Shown: positions 30,514-57,154, counted from the stretch's first letter. The stretch is DNA of 64,000 bases from Nitrospirales bacterium (GCA_965223495.1 OZ245001.1:3735833-3799832), one strand, 5' to 3'. Numbers and translations are program-made. Notes: generated by a model not told the origin, from the sequence alone.

Positions 30514-32160
30514 ATGAGCGCCACCGTCAGTTACACCGCACCGGAATGTGCCGCACCCAACACGCTCGATTCCCTCAAATGCCTGGTGTTGGACATCGCC
30601 CAACAACGTTCACTGAACGATTTGCTGTGGCTCATCGTGCGGCGATTAGCCGATCGTCCGACCGTGGTCCTGGCCAGAATTTGGTTGAGACGACCCGGCG
30701 ACATCTGTGATACCTGCCGCTTCAAAGAGGAATGTCCGGATCAAACCGAGTGCCTGCATCTGGTCGCCAGTGCGGGACGGTCGAGAGGGGCAGACAAAAC
30801 CGAATGGTCCAACACCGATGGCTACTTTGCCCGGTTCCCGTTAGGGGTCTGTAAAGTCGGGACGATCGGCAAGACCGGAGAGCAGCTCATCATCAATGAG
30901 TTGGACAAAAACCTGGAATGGATCGCCAAGCCCGACTGGGCCAAGGCGGAAGGCATCCGGGGGTTTCACGGACAACCGATTATCTACAAAGGCGAAGTCC
31001 TGGGCACCTTAGCCGTGTTCGATCGGGAGCCCGTCACGAAGGAAGCCACGGTGTGGTTCCGTATGATCGCCGATCATGTGGGCGTCGCCATCGCCAATGC
31101 CCGCGCCTTCGAAGAGATCGAACACCTCAAATCGCAATTGGAATTGGAGAACACGTTCCTCAAAGAAGAAATCCGGGAAGCGCAAAACTTCGGCGAGATC
31201 GTCGGACACAGTCCGGCCATCGCCAACCTGGTCGAACAAATCGAACTGGTGGCCCCCACGGATGCCACCGTACTCATCTCCGGCGAATCGGGCACCGGCA
31301 AAGAACTCGTCGCCCGCGAAATCCATCGAAACAGTCAACGCAAAGACCATCCGCTCGTGCGCGTGAACTGTGCCTCCATTCCCAAAGACCTGTACGAAAG
31401 CGAATTCTTCGGCCACGTCAAAGGCGCCTTCACGGGAGCCCTGAAAGATCGAGCCGGCCGGTTTCAAGCCGCCGATGGCGGCACGCTTTTTCTGGATGAA
31501 GTCGGAGAAATTCCCCTGGAGATGCAAAGTAAATTGTTACGCGTCCTGCAAGAAGGGGAGTACGAACGGGTGGGAGAAGAGAATACGAGAAAAGTAAACG
31601 TCAGAGTCATCGCTGCCACCAACCGTAAGCTGGCGCAAGAAGTCGAAGCCCGGCGATTCCGGCAAGATCTCTACTACCGGCTCAACGTCTTTCCCATCGA
31701 GGTGGCACCCCTCCGCAATCGTCCCGAAGATATTTCACTGCTCGCGCCCACCTTTATGGCTCTGGTGCGAAAAAAACTCAACTGTACCGGACGGGACTTG
31801 ACGCAAGCCGAAGTGTTAAAACTCCAAAACTACCACTGGCCGGGAAACGTGCGGGAACTGCAAAACGTCATCGAGCGCGCGGTGATCTCCTCACGCTGCG
31901 GCTCGGTCAAATTCGACCTCCCGGTCCCCAACACCAACGGCGGGGCAAGTAAGACCCCAATCAAAAAACCGGAAGTCAAACCCGATCAGGTCGTGACCGA
32001 TGAAGAACTCCGTCTCCGCGAACGGGAAAACATCGAACTGGCCTTGAAACAGACGGATTGGAAAATCTACGGCACCGGCGGCGCGGCCGAACTCCTCGGC
32101 CTCAAACCCACCACCCTCCTCTCCCGCATCAAAAAGATGGGGATCGTGAAGGTCGCGTGA
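30514..32160 (+). CDS. sigma54-dependent transcriptional activator (Cys-rich GAF - AAA+ - Fis HTH)
   Basis: GESGTGKE, ESEFFGHVKGAFTGA, GTLFLDEVG, WPGNVREL; C-terminal HTH. Confidence 0.96.
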   Translation: MSATVSYTAPECAAPNTLDSLKCLVLDIAQQRSLNDLLWLIVRRLADRPTVVLARIWLRRPGDICDTCRFKEECPDQTECLHLVASAGRSRGADKTEWSNTDGYFARFPLGVCKVGTIGKTGEQLIINELDKNLEWIAKPDWAKAEGIRGFHGQPIIYKGEVLGTLAVFDREPVTKEATVWFRMIADHVGVAIANARAFEEIEHLKSQLELENTFLKEEIREAQNFGEIVGHSPAIANLVEQIELVAPTDATVLISGESGTGKELVAREIHRNSQRKDHPLVRVNCASIPKDLYESEFFGHVKGAFTGALKDRAGRFQAADGGTLFLDEVGEIPLEMQSKLLRVLQEGEYERVGEENTRKVNVRVIAATNRKLAQEVEARRFRQDLYYRLNVFPIEVAPLRNRPEDISLLAPTFMALVRKKLNCTGRDLTQAEVLKLQNYHWPGNVRELQNVIERAVISSRCGSVKFDLPVPNTNGGASKTPIKKPEVKPDQVVTDEELRLRERENIELALKQTDWKIYGTGGAAELLGLKPTTLLSRIKKMGIVKVA

Positions 32161-33289: not shown

Positions 33290-33478
33290 ACGGGGCCTCC
33301 AGGACCTCGATCTTCGAGGGTGTGTACACGTCAGATAATTGAAGACAAGCGATAAACATTTCTCTGCCAGTTGCCTGGTGAATTTCGGTCTTTTCTCTCC
33401 TGAAATATTTCTTCCTCCACGTACCCTGTGGGAAATGTTACCGAAAAACTAGGATGTATCCTCCTCGTGAAAAGCAAG

Positions 33479-33625
33479 CGTCTCCGCGAACGGGAAAACA
33501 TCGAACTCGCGCTCAAACAAACGGACTGGAAAATCTACGGCGCCGGCGGTGCAGCGGAACTCCTCGGCCTCAAACCCACCACCCTCCTCTCCCGCATCAA
33601 AAAGATGGGGATTGTAAAGGCTTAG
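33479..33625 (+). repeat. Duplicated 3' end (HTH) of the sigma54 activator gene
   Basis: Closely matches 32011-32160 with synonymous changes. Confidence 0.92.
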
Positions 33626-34809
33626 CAAGAAATATTCTTCAACCTATATCTTGCAAGTAAGGTAAAGAAGTTGACTCGCCATGGGCTTTGTTTAGACCCT
33701 ACACAGCCCAGCCATCCCTCCGTTTGCTTTATTTAAGGTTGTTTCCTAATCTTTTTAATAGATGTTGTCTTCGCCGAAGTGTTTAGGAGAGAAGAAGACT
33801 GGGAATTCGTATGAAAAAAATATTCGAGGAAATTATTATATTGGCTCCATGCGATCTAAAGTGGACACTTGACGGAAAAAGATCTTCACATGGACTTGGA
33901 TAAAGGGCGATGGAATGGCAAAAGCAAAGAATCCCATAACATTCGCTCATGAGTTTGGAATTGATGAGGAAAATCTAAGAAGTTTAGGTGTTTTGAACGT
34001 TACTCTAGCAATTGATACGAAGTTATTCATTGATCCTTTGTTGTTAAAAAGAAGTAAGCACGCTGAGATATCGGGAATTGCAGCCAACCTATACCGACAG
34101 CATTTTGAGCAAGTAATAAAACTCCTCCGCGCAAGTAAGGCAGAGAATGATCCTGCCTGGAAGAGTGCCAAAAAATTACTGGCATTCCCCGAAATTAGGG
34201 GCACATGCCTGGGATATGGTGCTGGATCAATTCATGGCAGTGGCTTTGGTGATGGGCTATCTTCAAGAATCATTTCTGTAGCTTCACAAATTATTGATAT
34301 AGGAATAGAAGATCCGGATTTATTTTCGGCAATGGCCTTGTTTGAGCCAGATTTTGGCCCGGATAGAATCAGTGATATGACAACAAACATCATATTTGGA
34401 GCCCTAGCAGATTTTAACGAACGTTTATTAAAAATCTTAGGCTTAAAGGGGGAAGATTATACATACAAAAATACAAAGGGAACCTTCATTCTAAATCCTT
34501 ACGAAAAAAAGGATACTCCTATCATATTGTTACCAATAGATATTTTGAAAGATCTTCCTATTGCACATGATTGGGATAGTGTAGCTGATGCTGCAAGTAA
34601 GAATGATCAGCTTCGTGATGAAGTAAATCTTCACATTGCTTCTATTTGGGAAAAGAAAGCGAAACGGGACAAAGAGAGCCTTAAGAAAGAAGCATTGTCA
34701 AGCAAGAGAGCATTTGAGTTGCTGCTTTCTATAATGAACGATGTTTCCGCAAATCCTTATGACGTTGTCTCAGATCCCAACGGGTTGGTTAGATGGGCTA
34801 CTAAAGGCC

Positions 34810-36474
34810 CAGACTGTGTGAAAACTTCACCTACCCCATCATGCGCCATGCGCTAATCCGGGGAGCAACCCATCTCCTCTTGAGTTGCTTGTTGAGGCGA
34901 ACTATTTTGTTTTGTAGCCCCACGAGCCACCTGATGAGTCCCAGGCGGCGCTCATACGGTCCTAGTTGCGTGTATGAAGGCGTGCCTTACGCTTGGATCG
35001 CCTGGAGGAGTGGCTTCACGCCGAGAATCGACAGCATCCGTTTGAAGTTATACGCCAACACATGCAAACTCATCTCGGTGCGAACATGCTTGAGTGTTTT
35101 CATTTGGAAGTGGGTCGAGCCCATCCAGGCTTTTAAGGTCCCGAATGGATGTTCCACCGTTTGTCGTCGAATGCGCATCCGCTCCGGTTCTCGTTCAAGA
35201 CGGGCTTCGGCGGCCTCGAGCACGGCTTCATGTTCCCAACGTGTCACTCGCCGATAGGTCCCGGTCGTACACTGCGATTTGATGGGACAGTTGGGGCAAC
35301 GGGAGGACCAGTATTTGTAAAGCGTTAAGCCCTTCTCCTGTGTCTCGAACCGCCAGATGAGGCGCTCCCCTGCTGGGCATTCATACTCATTCTTGTCCGC
35401 GTGGTAGACAAAGTCGCGTTTGCTGAATAACCCTTTCTTCGGACTTCCCGATGTCTGCGGCTTGGGAAGATAGGTTGTAATCTTCGACTCCTCGCAGGCT
35501 AGAAGTTCTTCACTGGTGAAGTAGCCCCGGTCAGCCACCACCTCGAGTGTCTCTGCTCCGATGGCCTCCTTCGCTTGTTGCCCCATGTGGTGCAACTGGT
35601 GTCGGTCGCTGCCCGTATTGGTCACCTCATGGGCGACAATCAAATGATGCTCTGCATCCACAGCCGTTTGGACGTTATACCCGACAATGCCAGTGCCCCT
35701 CGTTTTCATTGATCGCGCATCGGGGTCCGTTAGGGAGAGTTGGTGGGCCGGGGCTTGACGCAGCTGGACTTCGAGCGATTTCAGGCGTTTCATTTCGGTT
35801 TTCAGTGCCGTGATCTTGTCCTCGAGCCGATGAATCTTGTCTTGGGCCATCGTCGCTTCTTGTCGATCCGCGCTGGCAAGCTGGCTCAGATAGCGGGCAA
35901 TGCTCTCATCAATCTGTTGCAACCGATGTTTCATCTTGGCGGCGGTGAAGTTCTTGTCTCGGTTATTGACAGCCTTAAACTTACTGCCATCGATAGCTAC
36001 AAAGGCGTCAGCAAACAGATTGAGTTTCTTGCACAGCACGAGGAACTCGCGACAGACCAAGCGAATGGCGGGGCCATTGTTCTTGCGAAAGTCGGCGATC
36101 GTTTTAAAGTCCGGGGCTAAGTGTCCGGTCAGCCACATCAGTTCCACGTTGCGGTGGGCTTCGCGTTCTAGACGACGGCTGGACTGTACTCGGTTGAGAT
36201 ACCCGTAGACATAGAGCTTGAGTAGGGTCCTGGGATGGTAGGCGGGGCGGCCCGTTTCCTCTGAATGGGTCTTGAAGCCCAGCCCGGAGAGAGCCAGCTC
36301 GTCAATGAAGACATCGATGACTCGTACCGCGTTGTCCTCAGCGATGTAATCATCCAACCGTTCGGGGAACAGGGTCGCTTGGTGGCGATCAGTCCCTTGA
36401 ATAAATCCGCTCATTCATCACACCTCCGTGGGAAAGTGCCATTATACTCTCCGGCGGAGTTTTCACACAGCCTG
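34810..36474 (-). mobile_element. IS1182-family element, copy 1 (intact)
   Basis: Terminal IRs CAG(A/G)CTGTGTGAAAACT; GGCC target duplication at 34806-34809 and 36475-36478. Confidence 0.95.
34987..36414 (-). CDS. IS1182 family DDE transposase
   Basis: LKLYVYGY...SSRRLE; PDFKTIADFR; IDGSK; TDPDAR; ADRGY; VEHPFG. Confidence 0.96.
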   Translation of the reverse strand: MSGFIQGTDRHQATLFPERLDDYIAEDNAVRVIDVFIDELALSGLGFKTHSEETGRPAYHPRTLLKLYVYGYLNRVQSSRRLEREAHRNVELMWLTGHLAPDFKTIADFRKNNGPAIRLVCREFLVLCKKLNLFADAFVAIDGSKFKAVNNRDKNFTAAKMKHRLQQIDESIARYLSQLASADRQEATMAQDKIHRLEDKITALKTEMKRLKSLEVQLRQAPAHQLSLTDPDARSMKTRGTGIVGYNVQTAVDAEHHLIVAHEVTNTGSDRHQLHHMGQQAKEAIGAETLEVVADRGYFTSEELLACEESKITTYLPKPQTSGSPKKGLFSKRDFVYHADKNEYECPAGERLIWRFETQEKGLTLYKYWSSRCPNCPIKSQCTTGTYRRVTRWEHEAVLEAAEARLEREPERMRIRRQTVEHPFGTLKAWMGSTHFQMKTLKHVRTEMSLHVLAYNFKRMLSILGVKPLLQAIQA

Positions 36475-37189
36475 GGCCATCAGTATGCTAAGCAGTTTCC
36501 TTTAAAATTCTCCAATACTTCAATAAAAACTATGGATGAAATATTTTCTATGGTTGAAGAAATAGTGACTCAGTTTCGTCAACTGATTGAACACAATGGT
36601 TTAAATAAAGAATTGTATGGAGGTAATAAAAAACCTCGTCATGAGTCTACGGCACAACGCCTGTTCTTTGCGGTGGCTTACTCCTATTGTAAAACAAATA
36701 ATGTAGACGTTTCCCCTGAGATAGATACAGGAAATGGACAAATTGACTTTAAGTTTGCAACTGGTTTCAAGGAAAGAGTACTTGTTGAAGTAAAATTATC
36801 AACTAATTCTAATGTCGTTCGGGGGTACACAACACAATTAGAATTGTATAAAACGGCTCAAGAAACATTGCGGGCCCTTTACTTGGTTATAGATGTCGGG
36901 GCAATGGGAAACAAATCTGATAATTTAATTAAAATAAGAAATGACGCTCGAGAACGAGGAGACCCATTATCAAGTCTCGAGTTTGTTGATGGAACTTTGA
37001 AAGTTCCGCCTAGCAAAAGAAAAGAATGACAAAATTCCGAATGTCCGCTTTTGACCGCTTACAATCCAATGCTGCCAATCCCAAAGCGTTTGGCAGAGAA
37101 GCTAGGTAAAGCACCAACATGCTTGAAGACTCTAACTGCACTAACGACGTGCAATTTTTTTGTGGTTTTAGAAAACCCAAATTAAAACA

Positions 37190-38308
37190 ATGAATCAAAA
37201 AAGGAAGCCCACATCAGGGACTACCGAGTTTTTTTGTCAATATATCGATGCGTTTGTCGCGCATGTCCAGCACGGGTCCTCTCCTCACATCCTGGAGAAG
37301 CTTCGTGTAGAGGTAAACAAGATTATGGGTATAAAGGGCATCTTTGGCCAGTTAAAGAACCTCGGCCAGGTCGAAAAGATCCCAGAACCCAAAAAGCTAG
37401 CCACAGACGAAACCCCTCATGCTGTAATTAACCCTAGTTGGCATAGACTCGCCATGGAACACTTGGCAGGCAGTTTCGGACGCTACGGCTTGGATGCGGT
37501 TTCCGGAATTGCAGAAGCGGCGTTATACGCCAATGCTCTAGCGACCGCCTTTGGAACCTACAACATTTACTATAGAGGTGAGCAACGATACGGTTATCCT
37601 TTACGAAGTCGCGCAGAGCGGAACTTGCCAAATGACGCTGGGCTGGCCGCGGGGCTAACGGAGCGCGAGGTCTGCGAACTTCGACGGTTTCAAGCAACTA
37701 TAAATAGCGATGCGGTGTTGGCGAAGGAAATTACCAAAACTATTCAATTGCCGGACGAAAATAATCCAATATGGCTACCCATCATTCAACACTATGATGA
37801 AGAATTTGGTACAAGGCTTCTGGACTTAAGCAGCTCGTTATTTACGGGACTCTACTTCGCATGTATTGGATGGGATGGTAAGATCGACTCAACACATGAT
37901 GGTTTGATGTACGTTTTCTTTCGGGGTAACGGGGGGCTCACCGTTCGTGGATTCTATTACGATGAGCAGCCTGATGAATTTGATGATGAAATGGACAACC
38001 TGGCACCCGATTCTGTGGAAGATAGTTTTAAAGATTGGGATCACCCGGAGGTACTGCGGATATACCGAGCATCGTCGAGTAGCGAACGAGAATTAGCACA
38101 GGATGGCTTATTTTTGGTAAAGGGCTCGCTCAGCTCAGGGCATGGATTTGGGCAAGGTTTTAAGTTTCGTGTGCCTGCTGAGGCAAAGGAAAAAGTCGCT
38201 CGCGAGCTTTGGATGGCGGGGTACACTCCGGAGCGAATTGTGCGTGGGCCGAAAGGCCGGTCAGCTCATAAGGAACTGGCAAGAATGTTGGGTGTTCCAA
38301 ACAAGTAA
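37190..38308 (+). CDS. FRG domain protein
   Basis: QHY...TRLLDLSSSLFTGLYFAC and R..AQ.G.F motifs. Confidence 0.82.
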   Translation: MNQKRKPTSGTTEFFCQYIDAFVAHVQHGSSPHILEKLRVEVNKIMGIKGIFGQLKNLGQVEKIPEPKKLATDETPHAVINPSWHRLAMEHLAGSFGRYGLDAVSGIAEAALYANALATAFGTYNIYYRGEQRYGYPLRSRAERNLPNDAGLAAGLTEREVCELRRFQATINSDAVLAKEITKTIQLPDENNPIWLPIIQHYDEEFGTRLLDLSSSLFTGLYFACIGWDGKIDSTHDGLMYVFFRGNGGLTVRGFYYDEQPDEFDDEMDNLAPDSVEDSFKDWDHPEVLRIYRASSSSERELAQDGLFLVKGSLSSGHGFGQGFKFRVPAEAKEKVARELWMAGYTPERIVRGPKGRSAHKELARMLGVPNK

Positions 38309-38740
38309 CGAATGAAATCCTGTCTGACACGATGATCGTTGCCGCTAGGTTGGGGCGAAAAATGACGCATCTCAAAAAAGAGGGGTCAAGTCTGTTGTTG
38401 AGAGTCTTGTCGGGAGGCAGTAGGACAAGAAAAGTTCCAAGAATCTTTTTTTGAAACTAATTAACCTAATCCTCCATTATCCCTACCGAACTCCTCCCTT
38501 ATAGCCCCACAACGCTCTTCCCTGAACCATTCTCCTCAAATATCCTTCTGTTAGTTCAAAGAATCCCAGTCCCTCCCATAGAAGGTGTGCAATTTTACAC
38601 TTTTAGCACCGAGCGAAATCGCACACTTCACGTTCTCTCCCATCAATTCGAGGACCGAATTAGAGGAACAGATAGAGAAAAACCGTATTTTTTCAGGGAG
38701 TTAGAGCGTGTGAACGAGAAAGGCTCCAATCAAATAATCT

Positions 38741-56280: not shown

Positions 56281-57154
56281 CATAACACCGAGCAGGTGCC
56301 GCACACATTGCCCAATCCCCACTAACCGACTCCAAAACAGGTTTTTTACCTCATCAATTTTCACAAGCCCTTCACTGGCAATGCCTTCTCTTTCTCAAAC
56401 CCACTGACGGCCAATCAGCTGCTCTAAATCATAGTGGACTTTAAATAGGTCAGAGGGATTCAAGCCTTATTTGCATCAGCCACTCCATTTGCACACCAGA
56501 AACAATGGGATAACCCTTCATTGATCGTTAGCTGAATCTTACGGCCAAATCATCTCCAAAGTCGGCTTTTGGCAACCCAAAGCGGACATTCCGTTGCCCG
56601 TATTTGTTAGCCTTTGGTATTTTTAATCAGCGGACCACAGGTTTGGTCCTTGTACAGTCCACCAATTTCCATCGATTACTTATATCCATGCTGCATTGGT
56701 TATTTTTCAATGGTGCTAGGTTGGTGCTATGTTTGGAAATTCTTGGTTGAGTATCTCCAAGATCGCGCAATTGCAAATATGGATAGAATATTAGACTTCG
56801 GATCGATGGGAAAGGGATTGTCTAAGATATTGAAAACCTGACATCCCCTCTCTTGTCTTAGGTTTTGTTCTCCTCGCCTACAAGTCTCTCCTTGCGGCTC
56901 TTAGACGGGTTTTATCTCTCTTTTGCTCTCTTTTTAACACCTATTTAACCCTAAAAAGAGTAATCCATCTTTTACGATTTAAATATTCTCAATCGTTAGG
57001 TCAATTGCTTCATCGAGTAGTGGCCGTTGGGGCGTTTGGGTGACGTTTCTCCTGCCTGGGGACCCACTCTCTCAGAAAGAATCCTCCCTTCTCTTTCTCG
57101 GCAGTCGAGCGGACTGATGCGATTGAGGACAAAACTATACGTTTGTCAAAGGGG

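Follow-up and report, generated by a model that had tools for sequence, protein, structure and literature searches.

A candidate immune nuclease gene split by an IS1182-family element beside an FRG-domain gene in a Nitrospirales genome

To our knowledge, PDC-M36, a PADLOC entry in which a two-domain nuclease protein is accompanied by small partner proteins, is a candidate defence system only. A second point of comparison is GAPS1 (Vibrio parahaemolyticus VPaI-6), a single PD-(D/E)xK anti-phage protein that responds to a capsid protein by inducing dormancy (10.1101/2023.03.28.534373). The Frg domain was placed by Iyer and colleagues in the ADP-ribosyltransferase (ART) superfamily, with a predicted role as an NADase effector (PMC9503650). 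Here we examine a 64,000-nucleotide stretch of DNA from a Nitrospirales bacterium (GCA_965223495.1, OZ245001.1:3735833-3799832), referred to below as the window, in which a gene for a predicted PD-(D/E)xK nuclease is split by an insertion sequence (IS) of the IS1182 family and followed by a gene for an FRG-domain protein. An initial annotation had taken these two genes for a candidate two-gene anti-phage system. The region studied was window 33915-38308, for which the sequence-level statements were re-derived. These data point to another reading, which we consider probable: two single-gene defence candidates, unrelated and each gained by horizontal transfer, happen to be neighbours in a variable part of a Nitrospira-like chromosome, the nuclease gene killed by the IS and the FRG gene intact.

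Without the IS, the nuclease gene encodes a 481-aa protein with an N-terminal DUF8370 and a C-terminal DUF8371 domain, and sequence comparison places PDC-M36A as a sister family of this protein. PDC-M36A (about 457 aa) has the same two domains, its N-terminal domain shares D34, D40, E93, G100, G108, D150, D154 and D287 with the family in the window, and its C-terminal part also matches other members of the superfamily. The window protein matched the PDC-M36A profile only at an E-value of 4e-6 and over residues 33-218, whereas true members match over their full length at about 1e-220, and it falls outside that family. All five of the five strong PDC-M36A loci continue into PDC-M36B genes (about 125 aa), in two tandem copies in most, and the locus described here does not have this arrangement: a search with the PDC-M36B hidden Markov model found no such gene beside the nuclease family, either in the window or in 80 loci of the family, and PDC-M36B was rejected as a hidden partner. 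In the PDC-M36 loci L110-L113 (genomes G190, G305, G389 and G085) the B genes are paralogous, and the B proteins had no Pfam match.

By analogy, GAPS1 may be regarded as the nearest functional counterpart with experimental support. Each is one protein that joins a PD-(D/E)xK effector to a large uncharacterised, presumably phage-sensing region, and each is carried as mobile-island cargo. The two differ in that no sequence kinship was detectable; the NCBIfam model NF047931 (antiphage_GapS1) gave no match to the window nuclease at E ≤ 0.1, so the resemblance is one of logic and not of membership. The CARF-nuclease effectors Card1/Can2 also fuse an N-terminal sensor to a C-terminal PD-(D/E)xK nuclease, and they, SfsA and PspGI come structurally nearest to the C-terminal domain, in matches that are weak (E 0.04-0.3, template modelling (TM) score 0.15-0.3) and limited to the nuclease core. 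Unlike that of Card1/Can2, the N-terminal domain of the window protein is not a CARF domain.

The interrupted nuclease gene and its family

The features of the locus are listed in Table 1. The IS entered at a palindromic tetranucleotide, GGCC, inside codon 299 and thereby separated the N-terminal from the C-terminal domain. When 33915-34809 was joined to 36479-37029 with one GGCC retained, the codons at the joint read ACT AAA GGC CAT CAG and a 481-aa open frame resulted. The proposal of the initial annotation that removal of the IS and one GGCC restores the gene exactly in frame was thus borne out, and no gap was seen at the joint in comparison with homologues. No lesion besides the IS was found in the nuclease gene; both halves are open and all invariant residues are kept.

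The element itself is a typical member of IS1182, with a transposase, inverted repeats, a short target duplication and multiple copies in the genome, and nothing unusual was seen in it. The transposase scored 460 bits against the NCBIfam IS1182 model, above the curated cut-off of 270. The terminal inverted repeats, CAGACTGTGTGAAAACTTCACC and, reverse-complemented, CAGGCTGTGTGAAAACTCCGCC, are 22 nt long and identical at 19 of 22 positions, and the target is directly duplicated on both sides of the element. A further copy, 100% identical, lies about 29 kb away on the chromosome, and two copies of 85% identity lie within 30 kb. From these copies, the element is active or was so until very recently. 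That copy, the intact target duplication and the lack of any other lesion together indicate that the inactivation of the nuclease gene looks recent, as had been suggested. Judged from its sequence, the copy of the gene in this window is a dead allele, split by the IS.

Table 1. Features of the nuclease and FRG locus (positions counted from the first nucleotide of the window).
Feature	Coordinates	Strand	Remarks
Split nuclease gene, 5' part	33915..34809	+	codons 1-298 plus one base; N-terminal DUF8370 domain; PHROG 30194 positions 1-292, E 4e-87
Target-site duplication GGCC, left copy	34806..34809		keeping one GGCC restores the frame and colinearity with homologues
IS1182-family insertion sequence	34810..36474	-	1665 bp; 22-nt imperfect terminal inverted repeats
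IS1182 transposase gene	34987..36414	-	475 aa; NCBIfam NF033551, E 1e-137; Pfam DUF772, DDE_Tnp_1, DDE_Tnp_1_6
Target-site duplication GGCC, right copy	36475..36478		
Split nuclease gene, 3' part	36479..37029	+	linker and C-terminal DUF8371 domain (predicted PD-(D/E)xK nuclease); PHROG 30194 positions 306-477, E 8e-59
Terminator-like hairpin	37137..37163	+	5-bp stem, then T-run; weak consensus match; between the two genes
FRG-domain gene	37190..38308	+	372 aa, intact; Pfam FRG PF08867; PADLOC PDC-S15

Two further observations were made at the right end of the IS. A 254-aa hybrid frame (36265-37029, plus strand) begins at an ATG within that end and runs through the junction into the complete nuclease domain, and a promoter-like match at 36462-36489 spans the junction between the IS and the gene. 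In principle, the hybrid frame might still yield the nuclease domain as a separate protein.

The restored frame had more than 1000 full-length homologues with end-to-end matches. The best 120 were 473-497 aa long and 56-78% identical to it at 99-100% coverage, again with no gap at the joint, and all 120 carried DUF8370 (PF28123, N-terminal) and DUF8371 (PF28130, C-terminal) in precomputed Pfam annotation. The domain names used for the window protein come from such precomputed assignments, with PF28123 assigned to P0045, the truncated product (N-terminal fragment) of the window itself, and both models assigned to the homologues of 56-78% identity. The PHROG family phrog_30194 covered the full length of the restored protein (E 1e-144). 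These catalogue entries describe the window protein's own family and have no function attached to them; the window copy differs in being split by the IS.

An alignment of 77 family members, down to 35% identity and drawn from many bacterial phyla and one archaeon, showed that E354, D388, E402-x-K404 and Q418-xxx-Y422 in the C-terminal domain are invariant, and all of them are present in the joined window protein. The elements of the PD-(D/E)xK signature (helix Glu, hhD, (D/E)xK, QxxxY) therefore stand in the correct order, and E...D...ExK...QxxxY is the motif order of RecB/Cas4-type PD-(D/E)xK nucleases. Other motifs in the 3' part of the gene are HESTAQ, IDFKF, VLVEVK and TQLELYK. An AlphaFold2 model of the intact relative of 78% identity was confident (predicted local distance difference test (pLDDT) 86.7, predicted TM score (pTM) 0.85) and gave the C-terminal domain an alpha-beta-beta-beta-alpha-beta order. 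Foldseek searches with this domain returned SfsA (probability 0.97, E 0.04), PspGI, Card1/Can2 and MUS81 from the PDB, and small Mrr, PD-(D/E)xK and restriction endonucleases from viral models, with TM scores of 0.4-0.6 on the target. The invariant signature and the predicted fold both agree with the restriction-fold nuclease named in the initial annotation, and a restriction-endonuclease-like fold is likely for the C-terminal domain.

The N-terminal 300 or so residues contain the invariant residues D34, D40, E93, G100, G108, D150 and D154 and the motif GTCLGYG..SI.GSG.G, which includes a glycine-rich loop. D287 was invariant in both alignments that covered that position, so that six acidic residues (D34, D40, E93, D150, D154 and D287) are invariant or nearly so and are common to the N-terminal domains of this family and of PDC-M36A. 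The motifs quoted in the initial annotation all sit on invariant columns, the seven N-terminal residues listed above and, in the C-terminal domain, D388, E402 and K404. Modelled alone, the N-terminal domain was predicted with confidence (pLDDT 84.3, pTM 0.84), and Foldseek found no neighbour for it in the PDB, the best probability being 0.05. A comparison of the family profile with PDB sequences returned only a spurious fimbrial match, which was discarded.

A profile of the N-terminal domain matched 2947 clusters at 50% identity among 1.84 billion representatives, 710 of them at E ≤ 1e-30. In every full-length protein among the best 150 of these 2947 clusters the domain was fused to the nuclease domain, and the longer members among the 150 added C-terminal extensions only, one of them CHAT-like. 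The metagenomic representative P0205 (678 aa) has both domains and a C-terminal CHAT (caspase-like) region at residues 499-645, and several other family members of 560-640 aa have C-terminal extensions with no assigned domain. Within the genus the distribution is sporadic, with the nuclease family found in 1 of 24 genomes (G020). This sole other copy in the genus (L114, G020:C6, locus 6429-7860) is about 48% identical to that of the window, has a GC content of 0.44 against 0.56 in its flank, and is split over two reading frames near residue 192, either as a frameshift pseudogene or through an assembly error.

The nuclease gene and the FRG-domain gene as neighbours

To compare the neighbourhoods of the nuclease family, 80 genomic loci were fetched with up to 8 kb on each side. 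With the FRG protein of the window as the query, tblastn over the loci and phmmer over the flanking open reading frames (ORFs) found an FRG relative in none of the 80, and the nuclease family was absent from all six distinct contexts of the FRG subfamily that were inspected. Conserved co-occurrence of the two families was thus not observed. Nor was any other neighbour of the nuclease family conserved; when three ORFs on each side were clustered all against all, the largest cluster reached 5 of the 80 loci and had no fixed position, and the flanking ORFs varied in size, strand and sequence from locus to locus.

The closest relatives of the two window genes also have different neighbours. Downstream of the 78%-identical nuclease relative is a weakly GIY-YIG-like ORF, and upstream of the 66%-identical FRG relative is an unrelated ORF of 362 aa. 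Kinship of the former with FRG was considered and no link was found; kinship of the latter with the nuclease family was rejected (hhalign probability 0.1). Among the 24 genomes of the same genus, each family was found once, and in different genomes, the FRG relative being in G024.

Analysis of base composition confirmed that the window contains two co-oriented genes that are poorer in GC than their flanks, as the initial annotation had noted, and also separated the two genes from each other. The nuclease gene has a GC content of 0.38 and a GC content at third codon positions (GC3) of 0.31, and for the FRG gene both values are 0.49, which leaves a GC3 gap of 18 points; the sigma54 activator gene to the left has a GC content of 0.57. 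The spacer between the two genes is 160 bp long and contains the terminator-like hairpin of Table 1, and no convincing sigma70-type promoter was found on its plus strand.

The gene-neighbourhood comparison proposed in the initial annotation thus gave a clear result, and homologues of the nuclease did not co-occur with FRG, an outcome that the annotation itself had named as speaking against its two-gene system. Together with the differing neighbours of the closest relatives, the gap in composition and the occurrence in different genomes of the genus, this indicates that the adjacency of the two genes is, as far as sequence comparison can tell, a matter of chance and not of operon partnership. 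What looks like an operon is thus a coincidence of position, and it would be a mistake to catalogue the two genes as a novel two-gene system.

Two short sequences in the spacer may be mentioned here. GTCCGCTTTTGA (37043-37054) begins 14 bp past the nuclease stop codon, and after another 25 nt comes CCCAAAGCGTTT (37080-37091). The pair is similar to the arms of a palindrome family that is intact at 56558-56590 (GTCGGCTTTTGG CAA CCCAAAGCGGAC), and arm matches of this kind, at two mismatches, are only about twice as frequent as expected by chance. If real, they would mark a module boundary between the two genes.

The FRG gene can be considered on its own terms. The FRG domain that had been noted in its product was recovered as PF08867 at residues 125-225 with 39.4 bits, above the gathering cut-off of 25. 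Eleven PDC-S15 profiles of PADLOC, for which there is no curated cut-off, also matched, namely PDLC04938 (E 6e-14, residues 106-354) and 10 others; this profile match and the unrelated neighbours in the six subfamily contexts agree with PDC-S15 as a single-gene entry. The protein shares its domain and profile with FRG/PDC-S15 and differs from them in extra N- and C-terminal regions with no assigned function. Its subfamily is small, with 48 clusters found, and the (Y/F)-R-G motif at R129-G130 is invariant in it. The gene in the window retains all 37 residues that are invariant in the subfamily, so that the earlier statement that the IS silenced a pair of genes is correct for the first gene, which is interrupted, and not for the second. 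The FRG protein is most likely a separate effector of the PDC-S15 type, from the ART superfamily and with a predicted NADase activity, that is independent of the nuclease gene. No experimental demonstration of defence by any FRG protein was found in the literature searched.

The closest FRG relative occurs in L087/L088 (Logan SRR14610222/SRR14610191, locus coordinates 1-7116), where it ends a co-oriented row made up of a cysteine desulfurase (Aminotran_5), a 676-aa ORF, DUF4007, DUF3553, an HD_4 protein, the 362-aa ORF and FRG. After FRG come an IS3-type transposase, a Prim-Pol gene and an integrase. The first genes of the row resemble an Ssp-type DNA phosphorothioation module, of which the HD protein, the 362-aa ORF and FRG might be the restriction arm.

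Genomic surroundings of the nuclease family and of this site

Defence genes and mobile-element genes were both found around the nuclease family. Among the 116 directly adjacent ORFs that encode 100 aa or more in the family loci are ResIII, T5orf172, AbiEii, type I S subunits, RES, Zeta, DarT, type ISP, Mrr, AspBHI and a Schlafen-type helicase (PDC-S41), and mobile elements are represented by integrases, resolvases and the TrwB coupling protein. The location of homologues among such genes is in line with the initial annotation. Copies of the gene were also found on plasmids, in Nitrosospira beside a tyrosine recombinase and toxin-antitoxin pairs, and in Rhodobacter beside SIR2 and GIY-YIG genes. 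SIR2 was considered as a recurrent neighbour and rejected, as it adjoined this one plasmid copy and had no match in the 80 loci.

A homologue of 480 aa in E. coli MB06172 (locus tag ACVF40_RS05665; L116, NZ_CM129887.1 1165931-1182042) directly follows the integrase of a P4-like satellite at ssrA, precedes the psu/ogr block, and adjoins a DUF3226 and AAA ATPase pair. A defence hotspot of P4-like satellites was reportedly described by Rousset et al. in 2022, and the position of the homologue between int and psu is presumably that defence-cargo site. Between its int and psu genes this satellite contains the nuclease homologue, a degraded portal gene and the DUF3226 and AAA ATPase pair. Taken as a whole, the evidence from neighbourhoods that the nuclease family may have a role in defence is circumstantial but consistent.

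In the window itself, toxin-antitoxin modules lie nearby, as had been stated, with Unstab_antitox, ParE and DUF4258 upstream of the nuclease gene. A 65-aa ORF at 33428-33625 duplicates the helix-turn-helix with which the sigma54 activator (30514-32160) ends at its C terminus, and the two bracket the toxin-antitoxin block. Synteny with three genomes of the same genus (88-92% identity) resumes at 38576 or 39199 and continues rightwards through HAMP/CHASE3 and SulP transporter genes. To the left of that point, at least as far as 26000, the content differs in each of the three genomes.

Possible roles of the nuclease family

The reading that we consider probable would make the nuclease protein a one-protein anti-phage system. 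On detecting a sign of infection, or on binding a ligand or nucleic-acid structure that is conserved, its N-terminal domain would release the nuclease to cut phage nucleic acid, host nucleic acid or both. This proposed action is modelled on single-protein PD-(D/E)xK defences such as GAPS1, and three functions are inferred, namely action against phage, sensing by the N-terminal domain and, for the FRG protein, NADase activity. A more specific proposal, which is plausible and which we put forward tentatively, is that the family is a widespread one-protein immune nuclease (about 2900 N-domain clusters at 50% identity, from many bacterial phyla and at least one archaeon) whose N-terminal domain has a new fold, responds through its acidic cluster and glycine-rich loop to a conserved infection signal (a nucleotide or nucleic-acid structure that it binds or processes, and not a variable phage protein), and then switches on the RecB-like nuclease. 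The small tandem proteins of PDC-M36 would then be regulators.

Several findings weigh against a defence role or against parts of the scheme just outlined. The tally of neighbours in the nuclease-family loci stands without a matched random-gene control. The corresponding site in the three same-genus genomes holds ordinary accessory genes and not defence genes, and for this reason a dedicated defence hotspot was ruled out and the site is better described as a general variable region. No homologue was found in 50,697 phage genomes, though a PHROG family exists. For an immune sensor the protein shows unusually strong conservation, with homologues in other phyla, archaea included, at 35-78% identity, and the best 150 clusters gave no sign of effectors being swapped on the N-terminal domain. 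The acidic cluster of that domain looks more like an active site than a surface for protein recognition, and the domain could be a second enzyme and not a sensor. As to the nuclease, Foldseek gave weak E-values (the best in the PDB was 0.04, and all exceeded 1e-3 except for one unrelated match), which is why the fold is graded as likely and not as proven. The nuclease models in the local copy of Pfam gave no match to the window protein at E ≤ 0.1, so that curated sequence models such as PDDEXK_1 or Cas_Cas4 do not recognise it, and NCBIfam yielded a single, weak match, to the C-terminal portion of EruA (E 0.067). Finally, no paper on DUF8370 or PDC-M36 was found; the defence pair had been called undescribed or poorly described in the initial annotation, and the nuclease family is indeed known only as Pfam DUF8370/DUF8371.

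Some of these points would also suit a protein with DUF8370 and DUF8371 that is not immune at all and is instead a selfish or housekeeping nuclease of mobile elements, for example a site- or structure-specific one. Such a nuclease might promote its own dissemination, secure the maintenance of its carrier element through post-segregational killing, or process DNA that is being integrated or replicated, with the N-terminal domain serving as a second module for catalysis or DNA binding. The very high conservation across phyla is consistent with this, the six invariant or nearly invariant acidic residues suggest catalysis, the gene often adjoins integrases or recombinases and is carried on plasmids and satellites, and its occurrence as a low-GC islet of a single gene suggests autonomous mobility. 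Its neighbours, however, are mostly defence and toxin-antitoxin genes and not genes for replication or transfer, the copy in the P4-like satellite lies between integrase and psu, where we assume defence cargo to be carried, and the sister family entered PADLOC because it is associated with defence islands, and it has small partner proteins. Conserved repeats at the flanks or a fixed target site were likewise not noticed, no search aimed at them having been made. On balance we regard a non-immune nuclease of this kind as unlikely.

It is also conceivable, with a still lower probability, that both genes are decaying cargo, the role of the nuclease having been lost before the IS arrived and the FRG gene being an unexpressed passenger. 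The surroundings would fit, since the region has many IS elements (within 30 kb there are four of the IS1182 type) and varies among same-genus genomes, and the sole other nuclease copy in the genus is split into two frames. Against this stands the state of the genes themselves: apart from the IS the two halves of the nuclease gene are open and keep all invariant residues, the FRG gene keeps all 37 of its own, and the second, identical copy of the IS points to a gene that was intact until it was hit very recently. Least credible of all is that the two genes form an operon for a two-component defence, with a sensor and nuclease acting beside an NADase effector, that was wholly silenced by the IS, since their shared orientation, short spacer, low GC, links of both families to defence and lack of a convincing promoter between them are outweighed by the absence of co-occurrence (0 of 80 and 0 of 6), which largely refutes it, and by the differing neighbours of the closest relatives, the unequal GC3 values, the hairpin and the occurrence in different genomes of the genus.

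Under the preferred reading of two independent single-gene candidates, the novelty resides in the nuclease family and not in this locus, and the family would take its place within a known kind of defence, that of single proteins made up of a sensor and a PD-(D/E)xK nuclease. Intact relatives, including the copy in the P4-like satellite of E. coli, are suitable objects for study, the copy in the window being dead. The insertion illustrates how fast accessory defence genes may be lost in a variable region rich in IS elements. If the family does act in defence, it would contribute an immune nuclease that is very widespread, compact and encoded by one gene, and whose sensor or enzyme domain has gone unrecognised, and the strong conservation of that domain hints at a conserved trigger and not one specific to particular phages.

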